Below are positions 47,684 to 64,000 of a stretch of DNA of 64,000 nucleotides, piece by piece. Both the position numbers and the translations under genes were made by a program. Numbering within the stretch: position 1 is the stretch's first letter; the number at the start of each line of letters is the position of its first letter. The notes under the pieces are model-generated. The model did no database searches. It saw only the letters and a list, made by a program, of their open reading frames with translations, and had not been told where the DNA came from. The stretch is from Anaerolineae bacterium (GTDB lineage: Bacteria > Chloroflexota > Anaerolineae > S140-20): assembly GCA_027021705.1 (NCBI GenBank), contig JALUTT010000144.1, positions 1 to 64,000 on the forward strand. Reading direction: 5' to 3'.

Positions 47684-50600
47684 GTGAACCAACCCAACCT
47701 TGCAGCCGCCCTGGAGCGCATCCGCCGGGGCCGGGAGAGGCCGGAGGACCTGGCCCTGCTGGCCCGGGCCGTGCGGGAGGGCCGTGTGGTGCTGGCCACC
47801 GGCGAACGGGCCGTGGCGTTGGGCGGCGACGCTCAGGACGTGGTCATCGTCACCGGCGACAAGAACGTGGTCACCGTGCTGCGAGGGGTGGAGCGGGAGC
47901 GGCTGTACCGGAGGCTCCCCCTGTTTAACGTTCCCGAACTCCCCACCCACTACCTCCCCCGTGAGGAGGAGCTGGCCCACGTGCGAGAGCGGTTGCTCCG
48001 CTCCGAGGGGGAGGTGGTGGGCATCGTGGGGGTGCGGGGGATGGGCGGCATCGGCAAAACGGTGCTGGCCGCGGCCCTGGCCCGCGATTCCGCTGTGCGG
48101 GCCGCTTTCCCCGACGGCGTCGTCTGGCTCTCCTTGGGCCGGGAGCCAAAGCTGGTTGCCCGCCAGGAAGACCTGGCTCTGGCTCTCACCGGACGGCGGG
48201 AACGGTTCCGCGATTCCGTTCAGGGCAAGGGGTTGCTACGCTCGCTGGTGGGGGACAAGGCAGCCCTGGTGGTGTTGGACGACGTGTGGGAGGCCCGCCA
48301 TGTGGAAGCCTTCCAGGTGCTGGGCGAGAGGGGCCGTCTGCTCCTCACCACCCGCAACCAGGACGTGCTGGACACCGTGGGGGCGCAGACCTATCCCCTG
48401 GATGTCCTCTCCAAGGAGCAAGCGTGGCAGCTCCTGGCCGACTGGGCCGGCCGGCCGGTGGAGGCCCTCCCCGTCGAGGCCAAACAAGTGGCCCACGAGT
48501 GCGGCTACCTTCCCTTGGCCCTGGCGATGGTGGGCGCTGCTGTGCGGTATGGTATATCTTGGAAGAGGGTTCTCCACCGCCTGCAAAAGGCTGACTTGGA
48601 GAAGCTGAAGACCCGCTTCCCCGGCTATCCCTACCCCAACCTGTTGGTCGCGCTGGAGGTCAGCGTCGAGGCGCTGGACGAAGAGGCCCGCGAGCGCTAC
48701 CACGACCTGGCCGTCTTCCCCGAGGAGGAGCCCATCCCCCTGGATGTACTAGCGATCTTTTGGGCCTCGTTGGAGTTGGATGAGGATGACATATGGGACC
48801 TGGCTGAAGGGTTCGTAAACCGCTCCCTGGCCCGCTGGGCCGACAAAGCACGGAGCGCCCTCACCCTGCATGATCTCCAGCACGACTACCTGCGCACGGT
48901 AAACAAGGCCCGGCTGCCTAATCTGCACCGGGGCCTGCTACGGGCTTATGCTTTCTCCCTGGGTGCGACAGATTACCCTCGCACCTCCATCCCTTGGGTA
49001 GAAATGCAACGCGCTTCGCTTCTACAATATTTCCGGGACCCCGATTTGTCTCCCGACTCTCGACACAGACACTTGGCACAGCACACTGTGCCCCTACGGT
49101 ATTTCTGGAACCACCTGGTGTACCATCACATCGGGGCCAGGTGGTGGACCCCCCTCTACGCAGTGCTGGCCGATTTTGATTTCCTGGAGGCCCGCTGTTG
49201 GGTGACGAGCCCTTACAACTTGGAGGCGGACTACCGCCGGGCCCTGGCTGCCTGGCCGGAAGGGGATGGGGAACGGCGCGGGGTGCTGGCCGCCTTCGAG
49301 GAGCGGGTGCGGCTGGAAGCCCCCCACATCGCCCGGGCTCCCGAGTGGCTCTTCCCCGCCCTCTACAACCACCTGACCTGGCTCGACGCACCCGACGGCC
49401 CCCTGCACCGCCTGTGCGAGGCGGCGGCCGAGGGGCGGCGGAACTGGCTGCGCAGCCGGCTGGACCCCCGCCCCGAGCCCCCCCTCTGGCTCTGCTCCCT
49501 GGAGGGGCACACCGAACCGGTGTTGGCTGTGGCGGTGAGCCCCGACGGGCGGTTCGTCGTCAGCGGGTCGTCGGACAAGACGGTGAAGGTGTGGGAGGCG
49601 GAGAGCGGCCGGCTGCTGCGCTCCCTGGAGGGGCACACCGATGTGGTGTGGGCCGTGGCAGTAAGCCCTGACGGGCAGTTCGTCGTCAGCGGGTCGTCCG
49701 ATGGGACGGTGAAGGTGTGGGAGCTGGAAAGCGGCCGGCTGCTGCGCTCCCTGGAGGGGCACACCGATGGTGTGAACGCCGTGGCGGTGAGCCCAGACGG
49801 GCGGTTCGTCGTCAGCGGGTCGTCCGACGGGACGGTGAGGGTGTGGGAGTTGGCCGGCGGCCGGCTGCTCCGCTCCCTGGAGGGGCACACCGATGGTGTG
49901 AACGCCGTGGCGGTGAGCCTGGATGGGCGGGTCGTCGTCAGCGGGTCGTCGGACAGAACGGTGAAGGTGTGGGAGATGGGGAGTGGCCGGCTGCTCCGCT
50001 CCCTAGAGGGGCACACCGAACCGGTGTGGACCGTGGCGGTGAGCCCCGACGGGCGGTTCCTCGTTAGCGGGTCAAGAGACGGGACAGTCAAGGTGTGGGA
50101 GATGGGGAGTGGCCGGCTGCTCCGCTCCCTGGAGGGGCACACCGGACCGGTGCGGGCCGTGGCGGTGAGCCCGGACGGGCAGTTCGTCGTTGGCGGGTCA
50201 TGGGACGGAACGGTGAAGGTGTGGGAGATGGCGAGCGGCCGACTGGTGTGTTCTCTGGAGGGTCATACTGGGGGGGTGAATGCCGTGGCGGTCAGCCCCG
50301 ATGGGCGGTTCGTCGTCGGCGGGTCGGATGATGGAACGGTGAAGGTGTGGGAGATGGCGAGCGGCCGACCGGTGTGTTCTCTGGAGGGTCATACTGGGGG
50401 GGTGAATGCCGTGGCGGTCAACCCCGACGGGCGAACCATCGTTAGCGGGTCGTCTGACTGCACCGTTAAGCTCTGGGAGGTGGTGAGCGGCCGACTACTG
50501 CGCTCCCTAAAGGATCATACCGGGGGAGTGAATGCTGTGGCAGTGTGCGGACGTTTCATCGCCAGCGGCTCAGCTGACGGCACGGTTAAGGTATGGGGAG

Positions 50601-52108
50601 TGGAAGGCGGCTGGTTGCTTCGTTCTCTGGAGGGCCATACTGGTTGGGTGTTGGCCGTGGCAGTGAACCCCAACGGGCAGCTTATCGTCAGTGGGTCGAA
50701 TGACGGCACAGTGAAGGTGTGGGAGGCGGCCAGTGGCCGTCCGGTGCGCTCCCTGGAGGGGCACACCGATTGGGTGAACGCCGTGGCGGTGAGCCCGGAC
50801 GGGCGGTTCGTCGTCAGCGGGTCGTCGGACGGGACGGTGAAGGTGTGGGAGATGGGGAGCGGCCGGCTGCTCCGCTCCCTGGAGGGGCACACCGGTTGGG
50901 TGAACGCCGTGGCGGTGAGCCCGGACGGGCGGTTCGTCGTCAGCGGGTCGTCGGATGGGACGGTGAAGGTGTGGGAGGTGGAGAGCGGCCGGCTGCTCCG
51001 CTCCCTGGAGGGGCACACCGATGATGTGACCGCCGTGGCGGTGAGCCCGGACGGACAGTTCGTCGTCAGCGGGTCGAGAGACCGGACGGTGAAGGTGTGG
51101 GAGTTGGGGAGCGGCCGGCTGCTGCGCTCCCTGGAAGGGCACACCGGAGGGGTGAGGGTCGTGGTGGTGAGCCCCGACGGGCAGTTCATTGTCAGTGGAT
51201 CGGAAGACCGGACGGTGAAGATGTGGGATGTAGAAGGCGATCGGCTGCTGCGCTCCTCAGAGGGCCACATAGGGGGAGTGAAGGCTGTAGCGGTGCATGG
51301 GCAGTTCATTGTTAGTGGATCGGCTGACGGGACGGTGAAGGTGTGGGGGGCGGAGAACGGCCGGCTGCTGCGAACCCTGGAGGGACATACTTGGGCGGTG
51401 TGGGCCGTGGTGGTGAGCTCCGACGGGCAGTTCGTCGTCGGCGGGTCGGAGGACAAGGCGGTGAAGGTGTGGGAGGCGGCCAGCGGCCGGCTGCTCCGCT
51501 CCCTGGAGGGGCACACCGATGCGGTGTGGGCCGTGGCGGTGAGCCCCGATGGGCGGTTCGTCGTCAGCGGGTCGAGAGACGGGACGGTCAAGGTGTGGGA
51601 GATGGGGAGCGGCCGGCTGCTCCGCTTCCTGGAGGGGCACACCGGGGGGGTGAGGGCCGTGGCGGTGTACGGGCGGTTCGTCGTCAGCGGGTCGAGAGAC
51701 GGGACGGTGAAGGTGTGGGAGGTGGAGAGCGGCCGGCTGCTCCGCTCCCTGGAGGGGCACACCTGGGGGGTGAGCGCCGTGGCGGTGAGCCTGGACGGGC
51801 GGGTCGTCGTCAGCGGGTCGGGAGACGGGACGGTGAAGGTGTGGGAGTTGGGGAGCGGCCGGCTGCTCCGCTCCCTGGAGGGGCACACCGATGATGTGAC
51901 CGCCGTGGCGGTGAGCCCGGACGGACAGTTCGTCGTCAGCGGGTCGGACGACCGGACGGTGCGGGCTTGGGACCCGGAGGATGGCACCTCACGGGTGCTC
52001 TTCTGGAACGACGCCCCCGTTCTCGGTCTGGCCCTCTCCCTCGATGGCCGCCTCCTGGCCTGCGGCGACGGCGTGGGGCGGGTGTGGATCTTCGAGTGGG
52101 TGCGGTAG
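47684..52108 (+). CDS. NLR-like STAND protein: short N-terminal domain + amyloid-like motif + NB-ARC + 21 WD40 repeats
   Basis: GMGGIGKT, LVVLDDVW, CGYLPLAL, LHDL; LEGHT...SGS.D.TVKVW repeats. Confidence 0.92.
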   Translation: MNQPNLAAALERIRRGRERPEDLALLARAVREGRVVLATGERAVALGGDAQDVVIVTGDKNVVTVLRGVERERLYRRLPLFNVPELPTHYLPREEELAHVRERLLRSEGEVVGIVGVRGMGGIGKTVLAAALARDSAVRAAFPDGVVWLSLGREPKLVARQEDLALALTGRRERFRDSVQGKGLLRSLVGDKAALVVLDDVWEARHVEAFQVLGERGRLLLTTRNQDVLDTVGAQTYPLDVLSKEQAWQLLADWAGRPVEALPVEAKQVAHECGYLPLALAMVGAAVRYGISWKRVLHRLQKADLEKLKTRFPGYPYPNLLVALEVSVEALDEEARERYHDLAVFPEEEPIPLDVLAIFWASLELDEDDIWDLAEGFVNRSLARWADKARSALTLHDLQHDYLRTVNKARLPNLHRGLLRAYAFSLGATDYPRTSIPWVEMQRASLLQYFRDPDLSPDSRHRHLAQHTVPLRYFWNHLVYHHIGARWWTPLYAVLADFDFLEARCWVTSPYNLEADYRRALAAWPEGDGERRGVLAAFEERVRLEAPHIARAPEWLFPALYNHLTWLDAPDGPLHRLCEAAAEGRRNWLRSRLDPRPEPPLWLCSLEGHTEPVLAVAVSPDGRFVVSGSSDKTVKVWEAESGRLLRSLEGHTDVVWAVAVSPDGQFVVSGSSDGTVKVWELESGRLLRSLEGHTDGVNAVAVSPDGRFVVSGSSDGTVRVWELAGGRLLRSLEGHTDGVNAVAVSLDGRVVVSGSSDRTVKVWEMGSGRLLRSLEGHTEPVWTVAVSPDGRFLVSGSRDGTVKVWEMGSGRLLRSLEGHTGPVRAVAVSPDGQFVVGGSWDGTVKVWEMASGRLVCSLEGHTGGVNAVAVSPDGRFVVGGSDDGTVKVWEMASGRPVCSLEGHTGGVNAVAVNPDGRTIVSGSSDCTVKLWEVVSGRLLRSLKDHTGGVNAVAVCGRFIASGSADGTVKVWGVEGGWLLRSLEGHTGWVLAVAVNPNGQLIVSGSNDGTVKVWEAASGRPVRSLEGHTDWVNAVAVSPDGRFVVSGSSDGTVKVWEMGSGRLLRSLEGHTGWVNAVAVSPDGRFVVSGSSDGTVKVWEVESGRLLRSLEGHTDDVTAVAVSPDGQFVVSGSRDRTVKVWELGSGRLLRSLEGHTGGVRVVVVSPDGQFIVSGSEDRTVKMWDVEGDRLLRSSEGHIGGVKAVAVHGQFIVSGSADGTVKVWGAENGRLLRTLEGHTWAVWAVVVSSDGQFVVGGSEDKAVKVWEAASGRLLRSLEGHTDAVWAVAVSPDGRFVVSGSRDGTVKVWEMGSGRLLRFLEGHTGGVRAVAVYGRFVVSGSRDGTVKVWEVESGRLLRSLEGHTWGVSAVAVSLDGRVVVSGSGDGTVKVWELGSGRLLRSLEGHTDDVTAVAVSPDGQFVVSGSDDRTVRAWDPEDGTSRVLFWNDAPVLGLALSLDGRLLACGDGVGRVWIFEWVR
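49499..52105 (+). repeat. Intragenic 126-bp (some 120-bp) WD40 tandem repeats
   Basis: 20 near-identical units plus one divergent terminal unit. Confidence 0.95.
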
Positions 52109-52854: not shown

Positions 52855-55156
52855 ACCGGGCCGCCGGGATCGTTTCGTGCGCTGGGCGCTGGCCCTGCTG
52901 GTGCCCCTGGTGCCCGTGTTGGCGGGGTACGTCTTCTACGTCCAGCGGCACACGCCCGTGCTGGATTTTCGCCTGGATGGGCGCACGGGGCGGGTGCTCA
53001 GCGTTCCTCAAGAGAGCTTCGCCGACTGGGCCGGCCTCCAGCCCGGAGACCTCATCCTGTCGGTGGACGGCGTGCCCTTCTCGGAGTGGCTCGAGCCGGC
53101 TCCGGGGAACTACGCCGTGGAGATCGAACGGGCCGGCCATTGCCTGACGCTGGAGCTGCCGCTCATCCCCCTCGTGAAGGTCAACGCCGGCTCCCTGATC
53201 GGCGGCGTCCTCGTTGCCCTGGTCTTCTGGGGGGCCGGCGTGTTGCTCCTCTGGCGGCGCTCCTGGCGGTCGGACGTGCGCATTCTCTTCCTGCTCTCCC
53301 AGGTCTTCGCCGTCGCCGCGCTGTTTCTGCTGGCCCATCCGACCGGGGTGCGCCCCCTCTGGATGTCGCAGGCGTGCGTCGCCTGCTTCCACCTGGCCGG
53401 CCCCTTGCTGGTGCACCACAGCCTGACCTTCCCCCACCCGCTGGGTTCCCCGGCCCGGCGGCGTTGGGGGATGGGCCTGGTCTACGGGCTGGCGCTGGTT
53501 GTGTTGACCGGCCTGCTCTGGGGGAGGCTCCTCTGGACCCGCCTGGGGGTGCTCTACCCCACCGTCGAGGTGGCCGTCGCCATCGGCGTGATGGTCTACG
53601 TCTACGTCCGTCGGGCCACACCCGATGGGCGCCGCCGGTTGCGCCTCCTCCTCTTCGGCAACGCGGTGGCGGGGGTGCCTTCCGTCCTCTTCTACCTCCT
53701 GCCCTCCGTCGTCGGCCTCCCCTCCCGGATGCCGGGGTGGGTGATGGGCCTCTTCTTGGTCGCCGCGCCGCTGAGCTACCTCTACGCGATGACGCGGCAC
53801 AACCTGTTCGGCGTGGACCGGCTGCTCAACCGGGCGCTGGTCTACGCGCTCCTCTCGCTGGGGATCCTGCTCCTCTACCTGGGGCTGTTCGTGGGGATCT
53901 ACCGCTTCCTGCCCGGCGATCCCCTGCTGGAGATGATGGCCGCCACCGGGCTGACGTTGCTGGTGGGCTTCTCCTTCAACGAGCTGCGGGTGCGGGTGCA
54001 GCGGCTGGTGGACCGCCTCTTCTACGGCGGCTGGTACGACTACGCCAGCGTGGTCGAGGCGGTCAGCGATGCCCTGGCCCGCACCCTCGACCGCGACCGG
54101 CTGACCGAGGTGCTCACCCGTCGGGTGCCGGCGATGATGCGCCTGCACCCCGGCCGGCTGGAGATCGGCGAGCCCGGGGAGTTGCCCTCCGACGACCTGC
54201 CTCCCTCCCCGACGACGGCCCGGTTTCGGCTGAGCTTCCGAGGGCAGGCGCGGGCCGTGTGGACGGCCGGACCGCGCCGGGATGGGGACGATCTGACCGA
54301 GACCGACCGGCGCATCCTCCAGACGCTGGCCCGGCAGGCGGAGGTGGCGCTGGGCAACGTGCTGTTGATCGAGGCGCTGCGCCACCGGTTGGACGAGATT
54401 CGCGCCGTGCAAAACCGGCTCCTCCGCTCCCGTGAGGAGGAGCGGGCCCGTCTGGCCCGGGAGCTGCACGACAGCCCCGTCCAACTGCTGGTGGGGCTGA
54501 ACCTCCAGTTGGGGCTCCTGCTGGCCGGGATGCCGTCCGATGAGCCGGACACCTCCGGCCTGGTGCGGGAACTGACGGCCGTGCGTGCCCAGGTCCGCCG
54601 GCTGCTGGCCGACCTGCGGCAGGTGTGCGCCGAGCTGCGTCCGCCGATGCTGGATACCCTGGGGTTGGGGGCGGCCTTCCGCGCCCTCCTCGACGAGTGG
54701 TCGGCCCAGAGCGGTGTGGAGGCGCACGCCGACCTGCTCCCCGATGAGGCGCTGCGTGCTCTGCCGGACGAGGTCGCCGTCAACCTCTACCGCGTGGTGC
54801 AGGAGGCGCTGTCCAACGTCGCCCGCCACGCCGACGCCCGGAGGGTCACCCTCCGGTTGACCGAGGAGGGGGACCGCCTGGTCCTGACCGTCCGGGATGA
54901 TGGACGGGGCTTCGTGCCCGCCGCTCCCCGCGATCTGGTCGCGCGGGGTCACTTCGGCCTGGCCGGGATGCAGGAGCGGGTCGCCCTCATCGGCGGCACG
55001 CTGGCGGTGGAGTCGGCTCCCGGCCGGGGGACGACGGTGCGCGTGGTCTGGGGGGGCGAGTCGGCGATGGAGCGAGTCAGCGAGTCAGCGATGGAGCGAG
55101 TCAGCGAGTCAGCGATGGAGCGAGTCAGCGATAAGGAGGGGCTCAATGACGTATGA
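52844..55156 (+). CDS. Membrane sensor histidine kinase (PDZ-like, multi-TM, GAF-like, HisKA_3, HATPase)
   Basis: AGLQPGDLI; EEERARLARELHD; QEALSNVARHA; DDGRGF; GLAGMQER; tail extended by repeats (ESAMERVS). Confidence 0.93.
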   Translation: MHPKPGRRDRFVRWALALLVPLVPVLAGYVFYVQRHTPVLDFRLDGRTGRVLSVPQESFADWAGLQPGDLILSVDGVPFSEWLEPAPGNYAVEIERAGHCLTLELPLIPLVKVNAGSLIGGVLVALVFWGAGVLLLWRRSWRSDVRILFLLSQVFAVAALFLLAHPTGVRPLWMSQACVACFHLAGPLLVHHSLTFPHPLGSPARRRWGMGLVYGLALVVLTGLLWGRLLWTRLGVLYPTVEVAVAIGVMVYVYVRRATPDGRRRLRLLLFGNAVAGVPSVLFYLLPSVVGLPSRMPGWVMGLFLVAAPLSYLYAMTRHNLFGVDRLLNRALVYALLSLGILLLYLGLFVGIYRFLPGDPLLEMMAATGLTLLVGFSFNELRVRVQRLVDRLFYGGWYDYASVVEAVSDALARTLDRDRLTEVLTRRVPAMMRLHPGRLEIGEPGELPSDDLPPSPTTARFRLSFRGQARAVWTAGPRRDGDDLTETDRRILQTLARQAEVALGNVLLIEALRHRLDEIRAVQNRLLRSREEERARLARELHDSPVQLLVGLNLQLGLLLAGMPSDEPDTSGLVRELTAVRAQVRRLLADLRQVCAELRPPMLDTLGLGAAFRALLDEWSAQSGVEAHADLLPDEALRALPDEVAVNLYRVVQEALSNVARHADARRVTLRLTEEGDRLVLTVRDDGRGFVPAAPRDLVARGHFGLAGMQERVALIGGTLAVESAPGRGTTVRVVWGGESAMERVSESAMERVSESAMERVSDKEGLNDV
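55056..55131. repeat. Octamer array upstream of the four-helix-bundle gene (GCGAGTCA/GCGATGGA)
   Basis: Direct reading. Confidence 0.9.
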
Positions 55157-55544
55157 GGAGTGGGAGGCGAAGGTTCACAAACGGATGGCAAGAGAACCGA
55201 TATGGCGATTCTTGGGCTATCGCAAGGCTCTCTTTCTCTACGACCTGGCCTGGGAAGATTGCGGGCGACTGATGCGCGATGTGCGCGGCCGAGCTGTGGC
55301 TGAACAGCTGATTCGCAGCGCCGGCTCGATCTGTGCCAATCTTGAAGAAGGGCATGGACGGGGCTATGGGAAGCAAAGGAACTGGTTTTTCACGGTCGCC
55401 ATTGGGTCAGCCCGTGAGAGCAAAGGATGGTATTGGCGCGCCAGAAAGCTCTTGCCGTCCCAAGTCCTGGACCACCGCCTGGCCCTGGTTGACGAGGTGA
55501 TCTCTTTGCTGGTCAGCGAACTCGCCCACCAGCGTTCCCGCTGA
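55146..55544 (+). CDS. Four-helix-bundle protein (23S rRNA IVP / Avd-like family)
   Basis: QLIRSAGSICANLEEGHGR...F..AIGSARESKGW; RBS AAGGAGG. Confidence 0.9.
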   Translation: MTYEEWEAKVHKRMAREPIWRFLGYRKALFLYDLAWEDCGRLMRDVRGRAVAEQLIRSAGSICANLEEGHGRGYGKQRNWFFTVAIGSARESKGWYWRARKLLPSQVLDHRLALVDEVISLLVSELAHQRSR

Positions 55545-56246: not shown

Positions 56247-57278
56247 ATGAAAAAAGGGAAGTATCTCATTGGTGCGGGCATGGTGGTGCTCTTGTTGGCT
56301 CTGGCAGCCGGCTTCGTCCTGGCTCAGGGGCCGGAACCCCAGGACGAGACGGCCCCGGACGAAGCGGCGGCAGTAAACACCATCGTGCCCATCCAGGGGC
56401 GGTTGACCGACGCCGGCGGCAGCCCGCTCAACGGCGATCACAGCATCAGGGCGCGCCTCTATGACGCCGATACCGGCGGCACCGCGCTCTGTGAGGACAC
56501 GGACACCGTGACGGTGGAAGACGGCCTGTTCAACATGGAGATGAACTGGTGCTCGGCCTCGGACATTGACGGCAAGTCGCTCTGGCTGGGCATCGCGGTG
56601 GACGGCGACCCGGAGATGGAACCCCGCCAGCCCATCTACCCTGTTCCCTACGCCTGGAGTCTGAGACCGGGGGCGATCATCAGTGACACGTCGAGTTCTA
56701 CGGCGCTGACCGTGTCCAACTACGGCAGCGGCACGGGGCTGCACGCCTCCAGTGAGAGCGGCGTTGCCCTTCGCGTCGCCGGGACCGGCGTCATCCAAAG
56801 CACGGCCAGTACCAGCATTTGGATTCCGGGCAGCGCCGCCGTCGTGCGGATCGGCACCAGCGGACTGGACATCTTGTATCACGGTGACGGCATCGCCCGG
56901 TTGGACGCGACCACCGATGGGACCAAGCAGATCGTGATCCCCCTCTCGGTGCCGGCCGTGCTCTATGGGCAACAGGTGCAGGTAAAGGGAGTCACGTTCC
57001 GATACAAGTGTGCCGGCGCCAGCGGCAGTTACATTGACCAAGTGAAGGTGTACCGCCACGATGGTTTGGGGAATTCCCGTACCATATTCGATGCCACGAC
57101 CGACCTCCTGTGCGGGGATGCCACGTGGCATTCGATGTACTACGCCCCTTCCACCGACAATGTGCTTTCCAGCGACGACGGGATTCTCACCTTCGAGGTC
57201 ACGGCGAGCATGAACGCTGCTGCCGGCTCCGAAATCTGGATCGCGGGTGTGGGGGTATACCTGGGCCATGACGGGTAG
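56247..57278 (+). CDS. Secreted/surface protein of unknown function
   Basis: Signal peptide; IPIQGRLTD..G.PLNG...LWLGIAV..D.EM.PRQ...VPYA domain. Confidence 0.75.
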   Translation: MKKGKYLIGAGMVVLLLALAAGFVLAQGPEPQDETAPDEAAAVNTIVPIQGRLTDAGGSPLNGDHSIRARLYDADTGGTALCEDTDTVTVEDGLFNMEMNWCSASDIDGKSLWLGIAVDGDPEMEPRQPIYPVPYAWSLRPGAIISDTSSSTALTVSNYGSGTGLHASSESGVALRVAGTGVIQSTASTSIWIPGSAAVVRIGTSGLDILYHGDGIARLDATTDGTKQIVIPLSVPAVLYGQQVQVKGVTFRYKCAGASGSYIDQVKVYRHDGLGNSRTIFDATTDLLCGDATWHSMYYAPSTDNVLSSDDGILTFEVTASMNAAAGSEIWIAGVGVYLGHDG

Positions 57279-57637: not shown

Positions 57638-59245
57638 GTGGACGTGAACGGGCGATGGGTTCTCAGGGTCACCGTGTCGGGCCTGATCGCCGTGGGCCTT
57701 TTGGGCGTTCTGGCCTCTGCTCTGTCTCCGCGAGCCGGCGGTGCAGCGGTTCCCCAGGCGGGCGCGGCAACGGCGGCCATTGACCGGGCGGCGACGCTGG
57801 CCCAGGTGGACGATGACTTCGACGGCGACGCGCGGCCCGTCGGCGCAGCCCCGGACGTGGGGGCCGACGAGTACGGTGTCCTGTCCTTCACTCCCACCGT
57901 CACGGTCTCCCTACCCCTTGTGGTCAACAACTATGCCACGGGTGGCCTGGTTCAGCCGGCCGACTTCACCTACCTGGGGGCCTTTCGCCTCCCCGGGGGC
58001 GAGGAGCCACCCCGAACCTTTGCCTACGGCGGCAACGCGATGACCTTCAACCCCGACGGCGACCCCGGCAACGCCGATGCCTACCCCGGCTCGCTCTTCA
58101 TCACCGGTCACGACCGGATCGCCTACGGTGGCCTGCCGGACGGCGACCAGATCGCCGAGGTGAGCATCCCCGCCCCCGCCGTCGCCGCCAACCCCGCCGA
58201 CCTACCCCAGGCGAGTTTCATCCAGGGGTTTCACGACGTGTTGGCCGGCCACTTCACCGACCTGGAGGAGATCCCCCGCATCGGGATGCAGTACCTCAAC
58301 CACCCCGCCACCGGCCCGCTGATCCACCTCTGCTGGGGGCAGCATCTCCAGGAGGAGGCCCCCTCCCACGCCTGGTTCAGCCCGACGTTGGACGCCCCGA
58401 ACGTCCAGGGTACGTGGTACATCGGCCACCAGAACCCCTACAGCGTCAACGGCTACATGTTCGACATCCCCACCGCCTGGGCCGACGCGCACGCCCAGGG
58501 GCGCTACCTGGCGACGGGCCGCTTCCGGGACGGCGGGATGGGGGGGATGGGGCCGGCGCTCTTCGCCTACCGCCCCTGGCTGGCCGATGGGTCTCCGCCC
58601 GCCTCGGGGACGCGCCTCTCGGAGACGGTGCTGTTGCTCTACGAGAGCTCCTACAACACCGAGGAGATCACCCGATGCCTCAACGGCTACCAGCACCCCG
58701 ACGAGTGGGAGGGGGGCGCGTGGATCACCACCCCCTCCGGCAAGGCGGCGGTGCTCTTTGCCGGCACCAAGGGCACCGGGGCCAAGTACTGGTACGGCTA
58801 CATCAACCCCGCCGGCCCGGACCGGCCCTGTGTCGAAGAGGCGATGAACAACGACTTTCCCACCTGTCGTCTGGCCGATGGTTCCATCTGTCCGCCGGAG
58901 GACCTGGTGGGCTGCTGCGACCCGGACGTGGACTGCGTCAGCAACCGGGGCTGGTGGTCCAGCCGCTTCGACGCCCAGTTCATCCTCTACGACCCGGCGG
59001 ACCTGGCGCGGGTGGCTGCCGGCGAGATCGCGGCGTGGGAGCCGCAGCCCTACGCGGTGATAGACATTGACGAGCACCTCTACCTCGACCCGCCCGATGG
59101 GGACGAGATCGAGCTGGGGTGGGGGGACCAACGGCGGTCGCGCATCGGTGCGGTGGCCTACGACCGTCAGAACGGCTACCTTTACGTGCTGGAGCTGTAC
59201 GCTGACGGCGCGAAGCCGGTGGTGCACGTGTGGCGGGTGGGGTAG
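57638..59245 (+). CDS. Secreted protein with internal SLPLVVNN motif and putative beta-rich C-terminal domain
   Basis: Signal peptide; D.DG..RP.GAAPDVGADEY; DF.YLGAFRLP...; typical codon usage. Confidence 0.7.
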   Translation: MDVNGRWVLRVTVSGLIAVGLLGVLASALSPRAGGAAVPQAGAATAAIDRAATLAQVDDDFDGDARPVGAAPDVGADEYGVLSFTPTVTVSLPLVVNNYATGGLVQPADFTYLGAFRLPGGEEPPRTFAYGGNAMTFNPDGDPGNADAYPGSLFITGHDRIAYGGLPDGDQIAEVSIPAPAVAANPADLPQASFIQGFHDVLAGHFTDLEEIPRIGMQYLNHPATGPLIHLCWGQHLQEEAPSHAWFSPTLDAPNVQGTWYIGHQNPYSVNGYMFDIPTAWADAHAQGRYLATGRFRDGGMGGMGPALFAYRPWLADGSPPASGTRLSETVLLLYESSYNTEEITRCLNGYQHPDEWEGGAWITTPSGKAAVLFAGTKGTGAKYWYGYINPAGPDRPCVEEAMNNDFPTCRLADGSICPPEDLVGCCDPDVDCVSNRGWWSSRFDAQFILYDPADLARVAAGEIAAWEPQPYAVIDIDEHLYLDPPDGDEIELGWGDQRRSRIGAVAYDRQNGYLYVLELYADGAKPVVHVWRVG

Positions 59246-59391
59246 ATCGGTGGGGTGGGGGCCGGATGTCCTGGTCAACGAGTGTGGTCAACGAATGGGG
59301 GAACGAATAAACGAATGGTGCTTTCGTCGGGTGTTGGTTCTCGTCAACGGGTGGGGGAACGGATGAGCGGATAACGGATGGTTGGGGCCTG

Positions 59392-59563
59392 TTCGTGCCG
59401 GCCTGGGGTAGGGGCGCAATTGGAATTGCGCCCTTTCGGTGATTCGGTGATTCAGGGGGGCTCGGATTAGAAGGTCCAGGCCGGGCAAAGGGGGGCAGCC
59501 ACTGGTGCTGCTCCCGCTTCGTGCCGGCCTGGGGTAGGGGCGCAATTGGAATTGCGTCCCTAC
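59392..59563. repeat. Two direct copies of a GTAG-REP-like palindrome (59392-59434 and 59518-59563)
   Basis: TTCGTGCCGGCCTGGGGTAGGGGCGCAATTGGAATTGCG(C/T)CC. Confidence 0.8.
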
Positions 59564-59579
59564 TTGTGGGTAATCGCCA
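59562..59579. mobile_element. Right end of MITE family A
   Basis: ACTTGTGGGTAATCGCC. Confidence 0.55.
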
Positions 59580-59592
59580 GAGGGGCATCCCT

Positions 59593-59620
59593 TTGACATT
59601 GGACGACAACGACGTATAAT
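59593..59620 (+). promoter_or_regulatory. Consensus sigma70 promoter of the STAND island
   Basis: TTGACA-16-TATAAT. Confidence 0.75.
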
Positions 59621-59713
59621 GGGGATGTACATCCGCAATGCCGACCGCCGTTTTGGGTGAAGGCTTTAATGCGGGCAAGATGACGAAGTGTGTGTTCAAG
59701 TATGAGGCAAGCA

Positions 59714-60970
59714 ATGAGCGAAGAGGCAGATCGCAAGCGTCGGGAGGATCTGGAGGAGCACATCCGTGAGACGCTGGACCTCATCAGAGAGTACGAGGAG
59801 AAACGCAGGCTCTCGGATGATCCCAAGGAGCAACGGGACTACGAACAGGAAATCACCGACCTGCGCCGGTTGTTGGCGAGGTATCAGGCTGAATTGGATG
59901 AACTGGAGAAAAGAGCGGAAGCGCCATCGGGTACATTGTGGCCTCCTAATATCCCCAACGAACGCTATTACCCTTTGCCTGGCCGGGAGCGGGATTTGGA
60001 CACCCTGTTAGATGTGCTGGCAGCCCCTCAGGCTCCTCCAGTGGTCGTCATTGATGGGCTGGGCGGTTTGGGCAAGACGGCGATGGCCGTGGAGCTAGCT
60101 CGACGTGCCTTGCGCCGGGGGATGTTCGAGGGTGTGGTCGGTGATAGCGCGAAACGGGAACTCTTCACTGCCGGAGAGGTCGTGCCGATACGCGAAGCAA
60201 CCCTCGACTTCGATAGCTTGTTGAATGCCATTGCTTGCCAGTTGGGACGTTGGGAGATACCTACTCTGAAGAGGGAGGAAAAGCAAGCAGTCTTGGCCCG
60301 CATTCTCCGTCAACACCGCTACCTAGTGTTAGTGGATAACCTCGAAACGGCTGAGAATGCCAACGCTCTGGTCGCTTACCTACCAAGCTTCCTCAACGGC
60401 AGCCGAGCCATTGTCACCAGTCGTAAGAGGCTACGTCAAGGTTTTGTTCGTTCTCTCTCCCTGCAAGGGCTCGATGTGGAGGATTCCTTGTTCTTTCTGC
60501 GGACAGATGCAGAGCAGCGTGGAGTGCGACAGATTCTGGAGGCACCAGAAGAGAGATTGATCGAAATCCACAGTATCACTGGCGGAGCACCCCTTGCATT
60601 GAAGTTGGTCGTAGCCCAGGCAGGGTTCCTGGACCTGGACCTGGTGTTGAGGCGGTTGCGGCAGGCCAAGGGTGACCTGTACCCATTTATCTTTCTCCAG
60701 AGTTGGAACCAGCTCTCACCAGCGGCCCAACGGGCACTCATCTATATCGGTAGGACAGTGGTGACAACTGTGAGTTGGGAGGAGTTGAGTGGTGTGGGTA
60801 TTGCTGAAGACGAAGAGGAGTTGGTGGAAGCGATCGACCAGTTGGTCGCTTACTCCCTGCTGGAGGTCTCTTCCAGTGCAGGTCAGATCCGTTATGGAAT
60901 TCATCAGCTCACGCGCCATTTCGTGGACAACGACCTTCCGAAATTGTGGCAAGAACAGGGGTTACTGTAG
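59714..60970 (+). CDS. STAND/NB-ARC ATPase with N-terminal EAD-like helical domain and no fused sensor repeats
   Basis: GLGGLGKT, LVLVDNLE, VTSR, GGAPLAL, YGIHQLTR then stop. Confidence 0.85.
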   Translation: MSEEADRKRREDLEEHIRETLDLIREYEEKRRLSDDPKEQRDYEQEITDLRRLLARYQAELDELEKRAEAPSGTLWPPNIPNERYYPLPGRERDLDTLLDVLAAPQAPPVVVIDGLGGLGKTAMAVELARRALRRGMFEGVVGDSAKRELFTAGEVVPIREATLDFDSLLNAIACQLGRWEIPTLKREEKQAVLARILRQHRYLVLVDNLETAENANALVAYLPSFLNGSRAIVTSRKRLRQGFVRSLSLQGLDVEDSLFFLRTDAEQRGVRQILEAPEERLIEIHSITGGAPLALKLVVAQAGFLDLDLVLRRLRQAKGDLYPFIFLQSWNQLSPAAQRALIYIGRTVVTTVSWEELSGVGIAEDEEELVEAIDQLVAYSLLEVSSSAGQIRYGIHQLTRHFVDNDLPKLWQEQGLL

Positions 60971-61002
60971 TTGTATAGTAGGCTTACCAGGCTGTGTCTG
61001 AG

Positions 61003-62211
61003 ATGGTTAAAAGCTCTAGGAATCAGGTTGTTCATCACTGGAGATCGTCAGACCGCTTGGCAGCGGAGACACGCCTAAGGTTGGCTCGCCGCTATCGCGA
61101 TCGATACGAGCGGCTAGATGATGAATTCGCCAACTTACGGGCAACCTGGTTCTGGTTAAGCACTCAGACCGATAAGGAAGCGACACAACTCTTGCTCGCC
61201 TATCTCGACACCCTATCGGCCTACCTGCGGCAGAGGGGACTCCATGCCGAGTTGCTGCGATGGTGCGGGGTCGGCCTACGGGCTTGTGCGAGGCTACAGC
61301 AGAACCCCGGTCGACTGCTGCTATTACGCAGCGAAGCAGAAAACGCCCTTGGCCGATGGGACGAGGCGGCTGTCAGCATCCAGGCTGCAATCGAGGCAAG
61401 CAAGGGAGTGGACCCAGGCACTTATGCACGGGCTGTCTTTGCTCTTGGGCGCTTGCAGGTAAATCAAGGAAATTATAGGGAGGGCCTTGAAGCCCTGTCC
61501 AGAGCCGAAAGGCTGCTGTCCGAGCAATCTGACTATGAGGGAGTGGCTGCTGTCCGCTTAGAGTTGGCGACATACCAACTTAACTGTGGGGAGTTGGATG
61601 AGGCACTTTCGCTCTATCGCAGCGTGGATCAACTCCGAAAGCAGGCGGGGGCTACCGAGACATCAGACTACATCTTGCTGATGCTGGGAGTCGTCCATCG
61701 TAAGAAAAGGGAGTATGAACAGGCAATAACATATCTGCAAAGCCTACTCGATCGGAGCGAAGAGCGGCGTGCACGTGGGGCTGCTGCCGCAGCGGCTCAT
61801 CATCTGGCATGGGTCTATCTGAATCTGGGTGATCTGGAGCAGGCCAGACGTCTGTGCGGACGCGCCATATCGTTATACGAGAGGATCGGAGACACGAGAG
61901 GCGCCTCCGATGCTTACGAACAACTAGGACTCATTGCCTACGCCGAAGGTGGGCAGGAGGAGGCTTTGTATCATCTAGAGCGGTCGCTGGTAATTCGCCG
62001 CCGGTTGGGCAACCAGCATGGCATGGCCAGTAGCCTGCGCCGTCTTGCTGTAATTCACATCCGAATGGGTCGCCTACTGACTGGTGCACGTGAATTGTGG
62101 CAGAGTCTGGCTCTCTATCGACGTCTGGGCGTACTCACCCGCCATCGAATCGCTGCGGTCCTGCGCGAACTTCTCGACTGGACGGTAGGGAAACAACGAT
62201 GGACAGTGTAG
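61003..62211 (+). CDS. Stand-alone TPR protein
   Basis: RLDDEFANLRA helix followed by TPR-like repeats (A..LG....G...A......SL); alternative GTG start at 60994. Confidence 0.85.
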   Translation: MVKSSRNQVVHHWRSSDRLAAETRLRLARRYRDRYERLDDEFANLRATWFWLSTQTDKEATQLLLAYLDTLSAYLRQRGLHAELLRWCGVGLRACARLQQNPGRLLLLRSEAENALGRWDEAAVSIQAAIEASKGVDPGTYARAVFALGRLQVNQGNYREGLEALSRAERLLSEQSDYEGVAAVRLELATYQLNCGELDEALSLYRSVDQLRKQAGATETSDYILLMLGVVHRKKREYEQAITYLQSLLDRSEERRARGAAAAAAHHLAWVYLNLGDLEQARRLCGRAISLYERIGDTRGASDAYEQLGLIAYAEGGQEEALYHLERSLVIRRRLGNQHGMASSLRRLAVIHIRMGRLLTGARELWQSLALYRRLGVLTRHRIAAVLRELLDWTVGKQRWTV

Positions 62212-63428
62212 AGGTTTCTAAGCAGCAGGCCGAAACCGTTACATTCTACTGTGATTCGCCTGCCAGAGCGGTTGCCTACCGTCTCTCTCTTGCCCAACGA
62301 GCGGCCGACGACCATCTGACGCTAGCACGCGAACTGTCCAACCTTCTTGAGGCGGCACGGCTGTGCTATGAGATGCGAGATTGGGAACGAGTAGCAGCCT
62401 TCCGGGATGCCCTTCATCCCTTCCTCGACCTGCGAGGCCACTGGAACGTGAGCCTTACTTTGAACGAATGGGCCCGTCACGCAGCGCAGGCCCTTGGAGA
62501 TCTGCTCAGCGCTGCTCGGTGGACGCACGACCGGGCCGACATCTTGCATCAGCAAGGCGATTATCGGGAAGCGGAGGAACTGTACAGAGCTGCGGAGGAA
62601 GCTTACCGGGCGTTGGATGAGCACGCGATGGCTCTAAGAAGCCGCCATATGCGATCACTGGTCGTGCGTGCCCAAGGGCGGTTGACCGAGGCGGAACGCC
62701 TCTGCGAGACGACCATTACCGAGGCCAGGAGATTGGAACTGGGATGTTGGCTGGCTCATCCTCTCTATGTGCGGGGCCTCCTGGCCCGCGATCGAGGTGA
62801 CTTTCGTAAAGCCAGGAGGTTCGTTCAGGAAGGCTTGGCGCTTTTGATAGATACCGATGAACAGGCGATGATTGCCCAGTGCTACCATTTTCTTGGCGAG
62901 GTGGCTTTGTTGGAGGGCAATCTTGCCGAGGCTCGGGAGCAGTTGGAGAACAGTCTCCGACTGAGCCAGCAGGTTGGCATTCTGCGCCGGGTAGCAGCTA
63001 CCCAGCGTCTCCTAGGGGACCTGGCACGGATCGAGGGACGCTATAAGCAAGCTGAGAGACTTTATCGTGATGCGTTGGAGATAGCCGACCGCCTTGGGGA
63101 TCGCCCCCAATTTGCACGACTTCTTCTCTCCAGGTCTCAGTTGATGGCCCGACTGGGAAGAATTCAGGAAGCAATTGATTTACTGGAAGGCGCGGTGTCC
63201 ATTTACGAAGAGATTGGGGATATGAGGGGAGTGGCAGGAACCTCTGTGCTTTTGGCTCGGTTATACTTTTCTCAAAGGCGAGGATGGCAGGCAATTCGAG
63301 TGGCCACCCGAGCGCTTAAAGTGGCTGGATCGGCCGGGTTGCTCCGCCCGTATGTCCTCGTGGGAGCGATGCGAAGATGGCACGTAGAGAGGACCTTGAA
63401 GGTTATATCTGCGAATCTTACAGGCTGA
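62199..63428 (+). CDS. Second stand-alone TPR protein
   Basis: ELSNLLEAA...FLDLRGHW followed by TPR repeats. Confidence 0.85.
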   Translation: MDSVEVSKQQAETVTFYCDSPARAVAYRLSLAQRAADDHLTLARELSNLLEAARLCYEMRDWERVAAFRDALHPFLDLRGHWNVSLTLNEWARHAAQALGDLLSAARWTHDRADILHQQGDYREAEELYRAAEEAYRALDEHAMALRSRHMRSLVVRAQGRLTEAERLCETTITEARRLELGCWLAHPLYVRGLLARDRGDFRKARRFVQEGLALLIDTDEQAMIAQCYHFLGEVALLEGNLAEAREQLENSLRLSQQVGILRRVAATQRLLGDLARIEGRYKQAERLYRDALEIADRLGDRPQFARLLLSRSQLMARLGRIQEAIDLLEGAVSIYEEIGDMRGVAGTSVLLARLYFSQRRGWQAIRVATRALKVAGSAGLLRPYVLVGAMRRWHVERTLKVISANLTG

Positions 63429-63709
63429 TTCGCGAGTACGAGGGTATCCTGCGCCTTTCCTCCGACCTACAGGAAAAGGCGCGTGCTCGGCGTGCCATCG
63501 AAGAGCAATGGGTGCTGATCGAGGGGTACCTGGAGCAGCATACTCCCCACCGCGCCCCGGTCATTGGGACCGGCTCAGCGATTCGTAGAGGCGGACGGTC
63601 TCCGGGGTCGGCTCGACCTGGAGTTCCTCCCTCAGCCGCCGGACACAGCGCCGGTAGGTGCGCATGGCCTGAGCCCGGTTGCCCAGCTCGGCGTAGGCAA
63701 CCATCATGA
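63377..63709 (+). CDS. Small ORF or remnant with EAD-like domain paralogous to the STAND N-terminus
   Basis: RREDLEGYICESYRLIREYEGILRLSSD vs RREDLEEHIRETLDLIREYEEKRRLSDD; tail after ~63545 is antisense to the next gene. Confidence 0.6.
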   Translation: MARREDLEGYICESYRLIREYEGILRLSSDLQEKARARRAIEEQWVLIEGYLEQHTPHRAPVIGTGSAIRRGGRSPGSARPGVPPSAAGHSAGRCAWPEPGCPARRRQPS

Positions 63710-64000
63710 GCCGGTACGCCTGCTCCCAGCACGGATCCCGCCCCAAAATGGCCTGACAGACCTCGATGACTTCTTCCCACCGCTCCCCCTCGGCCAAGGC
63801 CCGGGCCAGCCGGTCGGCGGTGCGCAGGTAGAGGGTGAGCAGCCGCTCCCGCTCCTCACTGCACCACTCCTCGTAGAGGCGCTCTTCCAGGTAGTTCCCC
63901 CGGTAGAGGCGGAGGGCCTGCCGGTATCGCTCGATCCTCCCCTCCGGGTCGCTCCCGGCGAGCCGGTCTCCCTCGACGATGGCCCGCTCGAAGGCCTCCG
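63561..64000 (-). CDS. BTAD-domain (SARP/AfsR-like) transcriptional regulator, 3' part
   Basis: ALRLYRGNYL...W...ERERL...DP.WEQAYRLMM.AY...GNRAQAMRTY...L.EEL.VEP.PET..LY. Confidence 0.9.
   Translation of the reverse strand, partial: EAFERAIVEGDRLAGSDPEGRIERYRQALRLYRGNYLEERLYEEWCSEERERLLTLYLRTADRLARALAEGERWEEVIEVCQAILGRDPCWEQAYRLMMVAYAELGNRAQAMRTYRRCVRRLREELQVEPTPETVRLYESLSRSQ

Follow-up and report, generated by a model that had tools for sequence, protein, structure and literature searches.

In a 64,000-nt stretch of an Anaerolineae bacterium genome (contig JALUTT010000144.1, positions 1 to 64,000; hereafter the window), four tightly packed open reading frames (ORFs) occupy 59.6-63.7 kb of the plus strand. 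They encode, in order, a short NB-ARC ATPase of the STAND (signal transduction ATPases with numerous domains) type, two tetratricopeptide repeat (TPR) proteins that we call TPR-A and TPR-B, and ORF4. The segment is best explained as a conserved cassette of three genes that was acquired horizontally and resembles the NLR receptors (nucleotide-binding, with leucine-rich repeats), plus the remnant of a fourth gene. We give a probability of about 0.6 to the reading that this cassette is a STAND conflict system assembled in trans, with the sensor arms encoded apart from the switch that they control; the binding between its proteins, the ligand and the immune role are what we infer. A first-pass annotation had described an AT-richer segment with its own promoter, an ATPase that ends after its winged helix, two close-packed TPR genes and a last ORF that repeats the N terminus of the ATPase, and all of these elements were recovered in the analysis below.

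Conservation of the ATPase-TPR split

The ATPase matches the Pfam NB-ARC family (PF00931; E = 4.5e-13; score, 49.5 bits; cut-off, 23.5) over residues 100-307 of an ORF of 426 aa that opens at 59690. The ATG at 59714, which lies behind a GAGG box, gives a protein of 418 aa, a length that equals that of its own database cluster and is near that of 417-aa homologues. The protein carries a Walker A motif (GLGGLGKT; K121), a Walker B motif (VLVDNLE; D208-N209-L210-E211) with Asn at the second acidic position, a GGAPLAL motif (GGAPLA at 290-295) and a winged-helix IHQL motif (H397), the last two of which we take to be of the GxP type and MHD-like, respectively. GLGGLGKT, DNLE, GGAPLA and the His of IHQL are invariant across 35 aligned homologues, and all 73 of the 73 invariant columns of this family alignment are kept. 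By profile, the nearest solved relatives are Roq1, AfsR and Sr35, and AfsR is also among the best weak matches in NCBIfam; scans of Pfam and NCBIfam matched no helix-turn-helix (HTH) or other DNA-binding family to the protein. The polypeptide ends 21 aa past His397 and has no repeat arm of its own.

This truncated architecture is the rule among related loci. Two scans of the collection returned 88 loci, one of which is the window's own contig, and in 77 of the others the match reaches the winged helix. The ATPase stops no more than 15 aa past the winged-helix match in 75 of these 77, and the two fused proteins (L091 and L095) have a tail of 358 aa. A search among longer proteins gave just six matches, and the fused NB-ARC-TPR proteins among them are 29-38% identical to the window ATPase. 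A gene that matches the TPR-A or TPR-B profile, counted if its start falls between -200 and +300 nt relative to the end of the ATPase gene, lies directly downstream in 50 of the 60 short-ATPase loci that have at least 1,150 nt of room. Such a gene is present in all 23 loci in which the ATPase is at least 44% identical, and in eight of the 23 (L036, L037, L039, L040, L042, L045, L047 and L049) both TPR genes occur, arranged as in the window, with reading-frame overlaps that are usually 25 nt and 34 nt. Adjacency of ATPase and TPR gene persists from 30% to 83% ATPase identity, with the frames overlapping or abutting. Because related loci have an equally short ATPase plus a TPR gene, the split is real and is due neither to recent mutation nor to an assembly error; it is a conserved arrangement. 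The outcome that the first-pass annotation had named as refuting its reading, homologues in which ATPase and TPR are invariably one fused gene, is thus not what the related loci show.

The set of TPR genes varies from locus to locus. Some loci have the B-type gene alone despite room for a second (for example, L038, L048, L052 and L062), and others have the A-type gene alone, again with room to spare (L041, L054, L057 and L058), a distribution that fits the earlier suggestion of alternative or cooperating sensors. The same genome encodes two further split pairs (C140:10420-13252 and C24:22287-24916), each with a short NB-ARC gene followed immediately by a single TPR gene of 405-430 aa. Their ATPases, the two nearest paralogues in this genome, of 517 and 494 aa, are 40% and 36% identical to the window ATPase and carry heads that resemble the HTH of sigma-70 region 4. 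By eye, a gene adjoining the C140 pair resembles the one at 56247-57278 of the window.

Both downstream proteins match the Pfam families TPR_12 (71.7 bits for TPR-A and 104 bits for TPR-B, against a cut-off of 30.1) and TPR_MalT (61.1 bits for TPR-B against a cut-off of 45; TPR-A also matches). TPR-A consists of an N-terminal helical segment (ARRYRDRYERLDDEFANLRA) followed by a TPR solenoid. TPR-B likely starts at the ATG at 62199, judging from the AGGGA box that precedes it, and overlaps the TPR-A stop by 13 nt. A start at 62178 was ruled out, as the codon there is CTG. We found 12 orthologues of TPR-A, at 39-78% identity and always immediately 3' of the ATPase gene, and 12 of TPR-B, at 45-66% identity; mean column identity across 13 sequences is 61% and 65%, respectively.

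The two TPR proteins are only about 23% identical to each other, and hhalign aligns them over their full length with a probability of 98.8. They have in common an N-terminal segment with the pattern RL.LA.R...L..E..NL. From residue 31 onwards, TPR-A also aligns (hhalign probability 95) to residues 461-788 of P0272, a fused EAD7-NB-ARC-TPR protein, beginning about 40 residues past the winged-helix motif of that protein; TPR-B fits the repeat part of P0272 alone (probability 90.9). The first-pass annotation had both TPR proteins opening with the helix that follows the winged helix in fused proteins, which agrees with this alignment of TPR-A and with the segment that TPR-B shares. Because TPR-A is collinear with the arm of P0272 and TPR-B is homologous to TPR-A, we take TPR-A to be the missing sensor arm and TPR-B to be an old duplicate of it, and we predict that both are sensor arms that act in trans.

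Compared with the closest locus, L045, protein identity is 83% for the ATPase, 78% for TPR-A and 67% for TPR-B. The rough ratios of nonsynonymous to synonymous substitution (dN/dS), calculated with saturated dS, are 0.076, 0.10 and 0.12 in the same order. By this comparison of coding sequences, all three genes are under purifying selection.

A helical hairpin shared with a truncated fourth gene

ORF4 repeats the N terminus of the ATPase, with 19 of 32 residues identical (BLASTP E = 3e-7), and the two align without gaps over about 52 residues within an 11-member family of this genome. AlphaFold2 models the domain of approximately 75 aa as a two-helix antiparallel hairpin (helices 3-33 and 37-69; predicted local distance difference test (pLDDT) score, 92.7). 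A Foldseek search with this model returned generic helical hairpins alone, all at E > 0.4, and the hairpin profile searched against PDB sequences gave only coiled-coil noise.

The genome holds 11 copies of the hairpin at E <= 0.06. In addition to the ATPase and ORF4 of the window, it is N-terminal in a 1,046-aa NB-ARC-repeat protein (C92), a 1,035-aa AAA_16-TPR protein (C75), a 631-aa ORC/CDC6-like ATPase (C8), a transmembrane (TM)-SH3_3 protein (C36) and a small protein (C40). It is C-terminal in a CHAT protease (C120), a small protein (C50) and the products of two adjacent genes (C85). The two C85 genes (L025:4294-13031) encode proteins of 433 aa, with weak TPR matches, and 158 aa, and lie within a type III CRISPR-Cas locus, with three RAMP genes upstream and a DUF4062-Cas_NE0113 gene and two Cas6 genes downstream. 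Together with the hairpin-CHAT protease of C120, these genes suggest a hairpin-linked accessory arm of CRISPR immunity. A complex prediction for the ATPase hairpin and that of the CHAT protein, with an alignment for each and run without controls, scored 0.02 (mark, 0.32), a value that we take as evidence in neither direction.

Beyond this genome, a profile built from the 11 copies recovers 906 cluster representatives at a threshold of E <= 1e-3, of which 339 remain at E <= 1e-10. Among the 150 proteins listed, the hairpin is at the extreme N terminus in about 140 and at the C terminus in most of the others. We scanned the 89 of these proteins that are at least 205 aa long with Pfam for fusion partners and found Peptidase_C14 (caspase; 9 proteins), FGE-sulfatase (9), bDLD1 (5), EAD7 (5), CHAT (4), TIR (4), PNP_UDP_1 (2), Trypsin_2, TRADD-N and EAD9 (1 each) and STAND or AAA NTPases (14). 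No Pfam family was found beside the hairpin in 37 of the 89, and none covers the hairpin itself in any of them.

The first-pass annotation had recognized the N-terminal domain as an effector-associated domain (EAD) and had likened it to the EAD9 class. The general reading is borne out by the architecture of the family. The hairpin is a small non-enzymatic helical domain at a protein terminus; copies occur on an NTPase and on an effector or signalling protein, often as neighbours (as in L045 and, with the ORF4 stump, in the window); and one genome encodes the domain on a number of proteins, namely STAND NTPases, a CHAT protease, a TM-SH3 protein and small proteins. From its domain architecture, the hairpin appears to behave like an effector-associated domain and agrees with most of the criteria of Kaur et al. 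The specific class is incorrect. Neither window hairpin matched any of the EAD models in the Pfam copy used at E <= 10, nor did any of 30 members of the family at E <= 1, in searches whose HMMER filters may hide very weak matches. In the protein P0204, the hairpin (1-74) is followed by a separate EAD9 domain (100-148) and accompanied by an EAD7 domain. EAD9 (PF19962) was ruled out as the identity of the hairpin on the basis of the absent model match and of this separate occurrence.

The same ATPase core also occurs with other heads, and the N-terminal slot varies among close homologues of 58-83% identity. We counted N-terminal heads, by Pfam entries for all but the hairpin, among the best 120 ATPase homologues listed, which are 56-99% identical and all short. 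The head is the hairpin in 31, an XRE-type HTH in 48, TIR in 9, PNP_UDP_1 in 7, DUF4062 in 2 and bDLD1 in 2, and in homologues of 58-67% identity TIR, PNP or bDLD1 replaces the hairpin at the same position. Such an exchange of heads, be they effectors, adaptors or DNA-binding modules, on a core that stays conserved is a pattern typical of conflict systems.

The fate of the fourth gene can be read from L045. Window positions 59713-63265 align to this locus at 75% DNA identity, and a second block, 63374-63529, aligns to L045 8142-8297, the start of a 471-aa gene that encodes a hairpin, a linker and a 330-aa domain. The homology stops at 63529, where the protein departs from the family between GYLEQ and HTP; ORF4 retains helix 1 and most of helix 2, and lacks the end of helix 2 and everything beyond. 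The cut, at about codon 52, falls where the low-GC DNA ends, and the rest of the reading frame runs in high-GC DNA, antisense through the 3' end of the convergent host gene, to 63709. The last ORF had been described as truncated or adaptor-only. Because L045 has a 471-aa gene at this position and the homology stops at 63529, ORF4 is a truncated 5' stump, and the adaptor-only option falls away.

The 330-aa domain that follows the hairpin in L045 (L045:8562-9557; P0277-P0396) is strongly conserved and has 741 homologues at E <= 1e-5, with no Pfam match at E <= 1 and, by profile, nothing among PDB sequences at E <= 10. Its fusion partners are the hairpin, bDLD1, EAD7, AAA_35 or nSTAND2, and it also stands alone. 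It has an invariant N-C-x-D-G motif and invariant His and Glu positions (numbered Cys231, His257 and Glu275), and this set of Cys, His and Glu is, we presume, reminiscent of transglutaminase-like cysteine peptidases. The Atlas points weakly to clusters of a transglutaminase-like kind, with scores of 0.92-0.93 and 10-58% of members carrying the family. In the AlphaFold2 model of the L045 domain, the mean pLDDT is 57, the N-terminal beta-sandwich is confident and the putative catalytic half is below 50. The domain is probably a new effector family. Several ATPase and effector-domain homologues have identical longest-contig values (P0005/P0293, 14216; P0015/P0285, 8098; P0020/P0325, 40842), which hints that the four-gene arrangement recurs.

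Boundaries, neighbourhoods and distribution

The GC content is 0.52-0.62 over about 59400-63600, compared with 0.65-0.74 in both flanks, and the cassette is lower in GC than its host in two different high-GC backgrounds, those of the window and L045. The features of the segment and of its edges are listed in Table 1.

Table 1 Features of the cassette and its edges, in window coordinates
Feature	Position	Strand	Remarks
34-nt dispersed repeat, copy	59285..59318	+	Left edge of the low-GC segment; repeat family D1
34-nt repeat, diverged second copy	59343-59372
42-nt repeat, two copies	59392-59433 and 59518-59559	+	Each holds the palindrome GGGCGCAATTGGAATTGCGCCC
Consensus sigma-70-type promoter, TTGACA-16-TATAAT	59593..59620	+	12/12 positions; called by consensus match alone
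STAND ATPase, 418 aa	59714..60970	+	Pfam NB-ARC
N-terminal hairpin of the ATPase	59738-59920	+	About residues 9-69
TPR-A, 405 aa	60994..62211	+	Pfam TPR_12, TPR_MalT
TPR-B, 409 aa	62199..63428	+	Pfam TPR_12, TPR_MalT; ORF open from 62097
ORF4, 110-aa reading frame	63377-63709	+	Homologous part 63377..63532, ~52 codons
Convergent host gene, 3' end	63561..64000	-	Outside the cassette; marks the right boundary

The 34-nt repeat has 14 copies in the genome at up to 5 mismatches; contig depth peaks at the copy on the left edge, and many contigs terminate there. The 42-nt repeat is unique to this locus genome-wide. Its palindrome is perfect (GCGCAATT-GG-AATTGCGC), and the second copy lies 34 nt 5' of the -35 box; the pair could be an operator or an insulating, terminator-like hairpin. 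A search of 59150-63800 with Rfam gave one match below threshold, to a lncRNA (26.9 bits against a cut-off of 50), which we attribute to chance.

To the right of the cassette, the convergent gene (GC, 0.64-0.70), the full ORF of which extends on the contig past the window, encodes at least 1,051 aa with a MalT-like ATPase, TPR, a winged HTH and BTAD (E = 1.6e-28). Upstream genes in the window encode a 1,474-aa WD40 protein, two-component regulators and an Avd-like 23S_rRNA_IVP protein. The WD40 protein gene lies at 47684-52108, and the N-terminal 600 aa of its product have no assigned domain. The Avd-like gene, at 54897-55544, coincides with a local GC dip and a strong GC skew.

In one sequencing run, X3, a contig links 59635 to 63449 (depth 5.3; 57 nt on the shorter side; 90% likeness). 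This joint omits 3,813 nt, comprising the ATPase, TPR-A, TPR-B and the initial 24 codons of ORF4; the cassette is spanned by further contigs of this run. The joint could reflect a presence/absence polymorphism or a chimera.

The neighbours of related loci are diverse, and at some of these loci they are defence genes. In L045, a hairpin-nSTAND1 gene lies upstream and the hairpin-effector gene downstream, and the locus has two nSTAND1 genes. The neighbours in L036 include HsdR, AAA_13, YgjP, DUF4062 and a Metallophos-NACHT-FGS gene. The ATPase version with the XRE-type HTH plus a single TPR-B gene is found in L038 and L048, which are separate records, and is surrounded there by Cas1/Cas2/Cas4, Cas6, Csx3, a reverse transcriptase of the group II intron type, a ThiF/JAB protein and a NYN nuclease. 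The distribution of the cassette is patchy: with this query, an orthologue of the ATPase was not found at E <= 1e-60 in three other genomes of the family (86, 64 and 91% complete). In one of these sister genomes, G003, the orthologues of the two genes that flank the cassette are on different contigs.

Proposed assembly in trans, its rivals and known systems

If the cassette is a receptor assembled in trans, the ATPase would be a nucleotide-driven oligomerisation switch without a sensor arm, and the ancient paralogues TPR-A and TPR-B would each take the place of the C-terminal arm that fused NB-ARC-TPR proteins have. The N-terminal helical segments of the TPR proteins may dock on the winged-helix end of the ATPase, rebuilding the receptor, and the docked proteins would keep it off until a ligand, most likely an invader-derived protein or peptide, binds the TPR solenoid. 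Oligomerisation would cluster the N-terminal hairpins, which could pair with hairpins of the same type on other proteins and so draw in effectors and activate them through proximity. The gene immediately downstream in L045 encodes the candidate effector, the hairpin protein of 471 aa. Because the effector gene is truncated in the window, any output here would have to go through hairpin proteins encoded elsewhere, possibly the C120 CHAT protease or the hairpin proteins of the C85 type III CRISPR locus.

Several observations weigh against this account. With its cognate effector gene broken, this copy of the cassette may be without output, and the X3 joint hints at a form that lacks the three genes in a related population. 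No PADLOC model fits the ATPase (the best is LmuC, at 13.9 bits), and the TPR genes match the generic 'TPR' model. The XRE-type HTH is the commonest head among the listed homologues, so much of the ATPase family may be transcriptional regulators. The flanks of the window cassette are two-component and regulator genes, and L039, L052 and L057 lie among housekeeping genes. A TPR-A/B-like neighbour is lacking in 10 of the 60 short-ATPase loci with room for one, all at 38% identity or less, and generic TPR similarity can satisfy the profile test by which such neighbours were counted. Adjacent hairpin copies are not each other's nearest kin: the ATPase and ORF4 hairpins are 39% identical, compared with up to 48% elsewhere (45% between the ATPase and CHAT copies, and 48% between ORF4 and both the CHAT and C92 copies), and the C85 copies, at 72%, are the sole close pair. 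The pairing of the ATPase with the TPR proteins and of hairpin with hairpin, the ligand and the phenotype are steps that we infer.

An alternative that draws on some of these points is a non-immune STAND module for signalling or regulation, comparable to MalT, AfsR or GutR, in which the TPR proteins sense a metabolite or peptide and the hairpin relays the signal to housekeeping partners. The prevalence of XRE-type HTH heads (48/120), the sigma-70 region 4-like HTH of the C140 and C24 paralogues, the presence of AfsR among both the weak NCBIfam matches and the solved relatives, the name 'LuxR family glucitol operon transcriptional activator' that some sources give to homologues and the housekeeping surroundings of several related loci are all in keeping with such a role. 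We nevertheless consider it unlikely for this cassette, the ATPase of which has no match to a DNA-binding domain. In other proteins, the hairpin is joined to caspases, CHAT, TIR, PNP, Death-like and EAD domains, the head is exchanged for TIR, PNP or bDLD1 even among homologues at 58-67% identity, and other hairpin-STAND genes flank the closest locus, L045. It is similarly improbable that the TPR genes, for all that TPR proteins are generic interaction modules and their binding to the ATPase is a prediction, are mere co-transcribed neighbours that encode chaperones or scaffolds; indeed, we regard this as very improbable, because their adjacency to the ATPase is kept across the whole range of identity with overlapping or abutting frames, TPR-A is collinear with the arm of the fused homologue and begins right after the winged helix, and the ATPase clade consistently lacks a repeat arm of its own.

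The cassette could instead be a dead remnant, transferred together with an effector gene that was lost by a deletion at the right edge, now neutral, in the course of being lost and possibly absent from part of the population. The truncation of ORF4 at codon ~52, exactly at the low-GC end, is what such a history would leave behind; the X3 contig that joins 59635 to 63449 alongside others that cover the cassette would fit an absence in some cells, and the search of the three sister genomes gave no orthologue. This history seems improbable to us, as the three genes are intact, every invariant family residue of the ATPase is kept and a promoter with 12 of 12 consensus positions lies upstream. Ten other hairpin proteins in the genome could act as partners, and loci without the fourth hairpin gene, such as L047, indicate that the three-gene core may be self-sufficient. 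The X3 joint itself comes from one contig of low depth, which has 57 nt on its shorter side and 90% likeness. We prefer the conflict system assembled in trans, and tentatively consider an extension of it that is possible but doubtful, in which the whole NB-ARC clade comprises trans-assembled NLRs and a hairpin network wires the ATPase to CHAT, STAND and CRISPR proteins, forming an inflammasome-like hub of NLR and CRISPR immunity. In such a hub, the core would take one or two TPR sensors (A and/or B), and specificities could be added, swapped and combined while the switch stays as it is.

The closest precedents are the EAD-coupled STAND and ternary conflict systems that multicellular bacteria carry (Kaur, Burroughs, Iyer, Aravind, eLife 2020, PMC7159879; Kaur et al., eLife 2021, PMC8195603). 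These two articles note one AP-ATPase that is encoded apart from TPRs, and PMC7159879 reports that EAD copies in adjacent genes are each other's closest relatives and draws the analogy of EAD systems to the animal apoptosome and inflammasome. Like those EAD systems, the hairpin system has a small, non-enzymatic, all-helical terminal domain common to the core NTPase and the effectors, which is multicopy per genome; an AP-ATPase core; and partners that include caspase/CHAT, TIR, PNP, FGS, trypsin, Death-like, TRADD-N and STAND domains. Unlike them, the hairpin matches no EAD or bDLD model of the Pfam copy used and is predicted to be a two-helix hairpin rather than a Death-like bundle, adjacent hairpin copies are not the most similar, and no MoxR-vWA or GTPase core is present here. 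The sensor repeats, moreover, are on one or two separate proteins across the whole NB-ARC clade.

Comparison with other STAND proteins gives a similar mixture of likeness and difference. In AfsR, MalT and GutR, as here, an NB-ARC/AP-ATPase core is combined with a TPR arm, and many members of the ATPase family carry an HTH; the window ATPase differs in lacking a DNA-binding domain, in having its TPR arm on separate proteins and in bearing an effector-type adaptor as its N terminus. The Avs/AVAST proteins, credited to Gao et al. in Science in 2022, are reportedly single polypeptides with a fused effector, a STAND NTPase and a TPR-type sensor. The order of N-terminal effector or adaptor, STAND NTPase and TPR-type sensor is the same here, and ligand-induced oligomerisation would be expected in both; in the cassette, in contrast, the sensor is encoded apart and has been duplicated, an adaptor would recruit the effector and no PADLOC model fits the ATPase.

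In animals, oligomerised NOD modules recruit caspase-type proteases through homotypic adaptors, as APAF-1 does with caspase-9 by means of its CARD, and in NAIP/NLRC4 the sensing and oligomerising proteins are separate. The adaptor fold and repeat type of the cassette differ from those of the apoptosome and inflammasome, and a filament or ring would be conjectural for the cassette; the resemblance is an analogy, with homology shown for the NB-ARC core. In principle, STAND switches, EAD coupling and Death-like adaptors have already been published. A search of the full-text literature, judged by titles and the starts of abstracts, found no description of the hairpin family or of a split NB-ARC/TPR-A/TPR-B cassette. 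The hairpin motif was not found in the available parts of the supplements of PMC7159879 and PMC8195603, where the domain may stand under another name.

The bacterial NLR-like receptors studied to date have the switch, the sensor and usually the effector on one chain. If our reading is correct, the sensor arm, the switch and the effector would be three separable proteins, so that auto-inhibition and the reading of two sensors could be tested by mixing them. The large unnamed hairpin family, with its 906 cluster representatives, would extend the 'EAD principle' past the families in Pfam and could provide a handle for new effectors, of which the 330-aa domain is an example. The hairpin may also physically connect NLR-type immunity with that of type III CRISPR systems.

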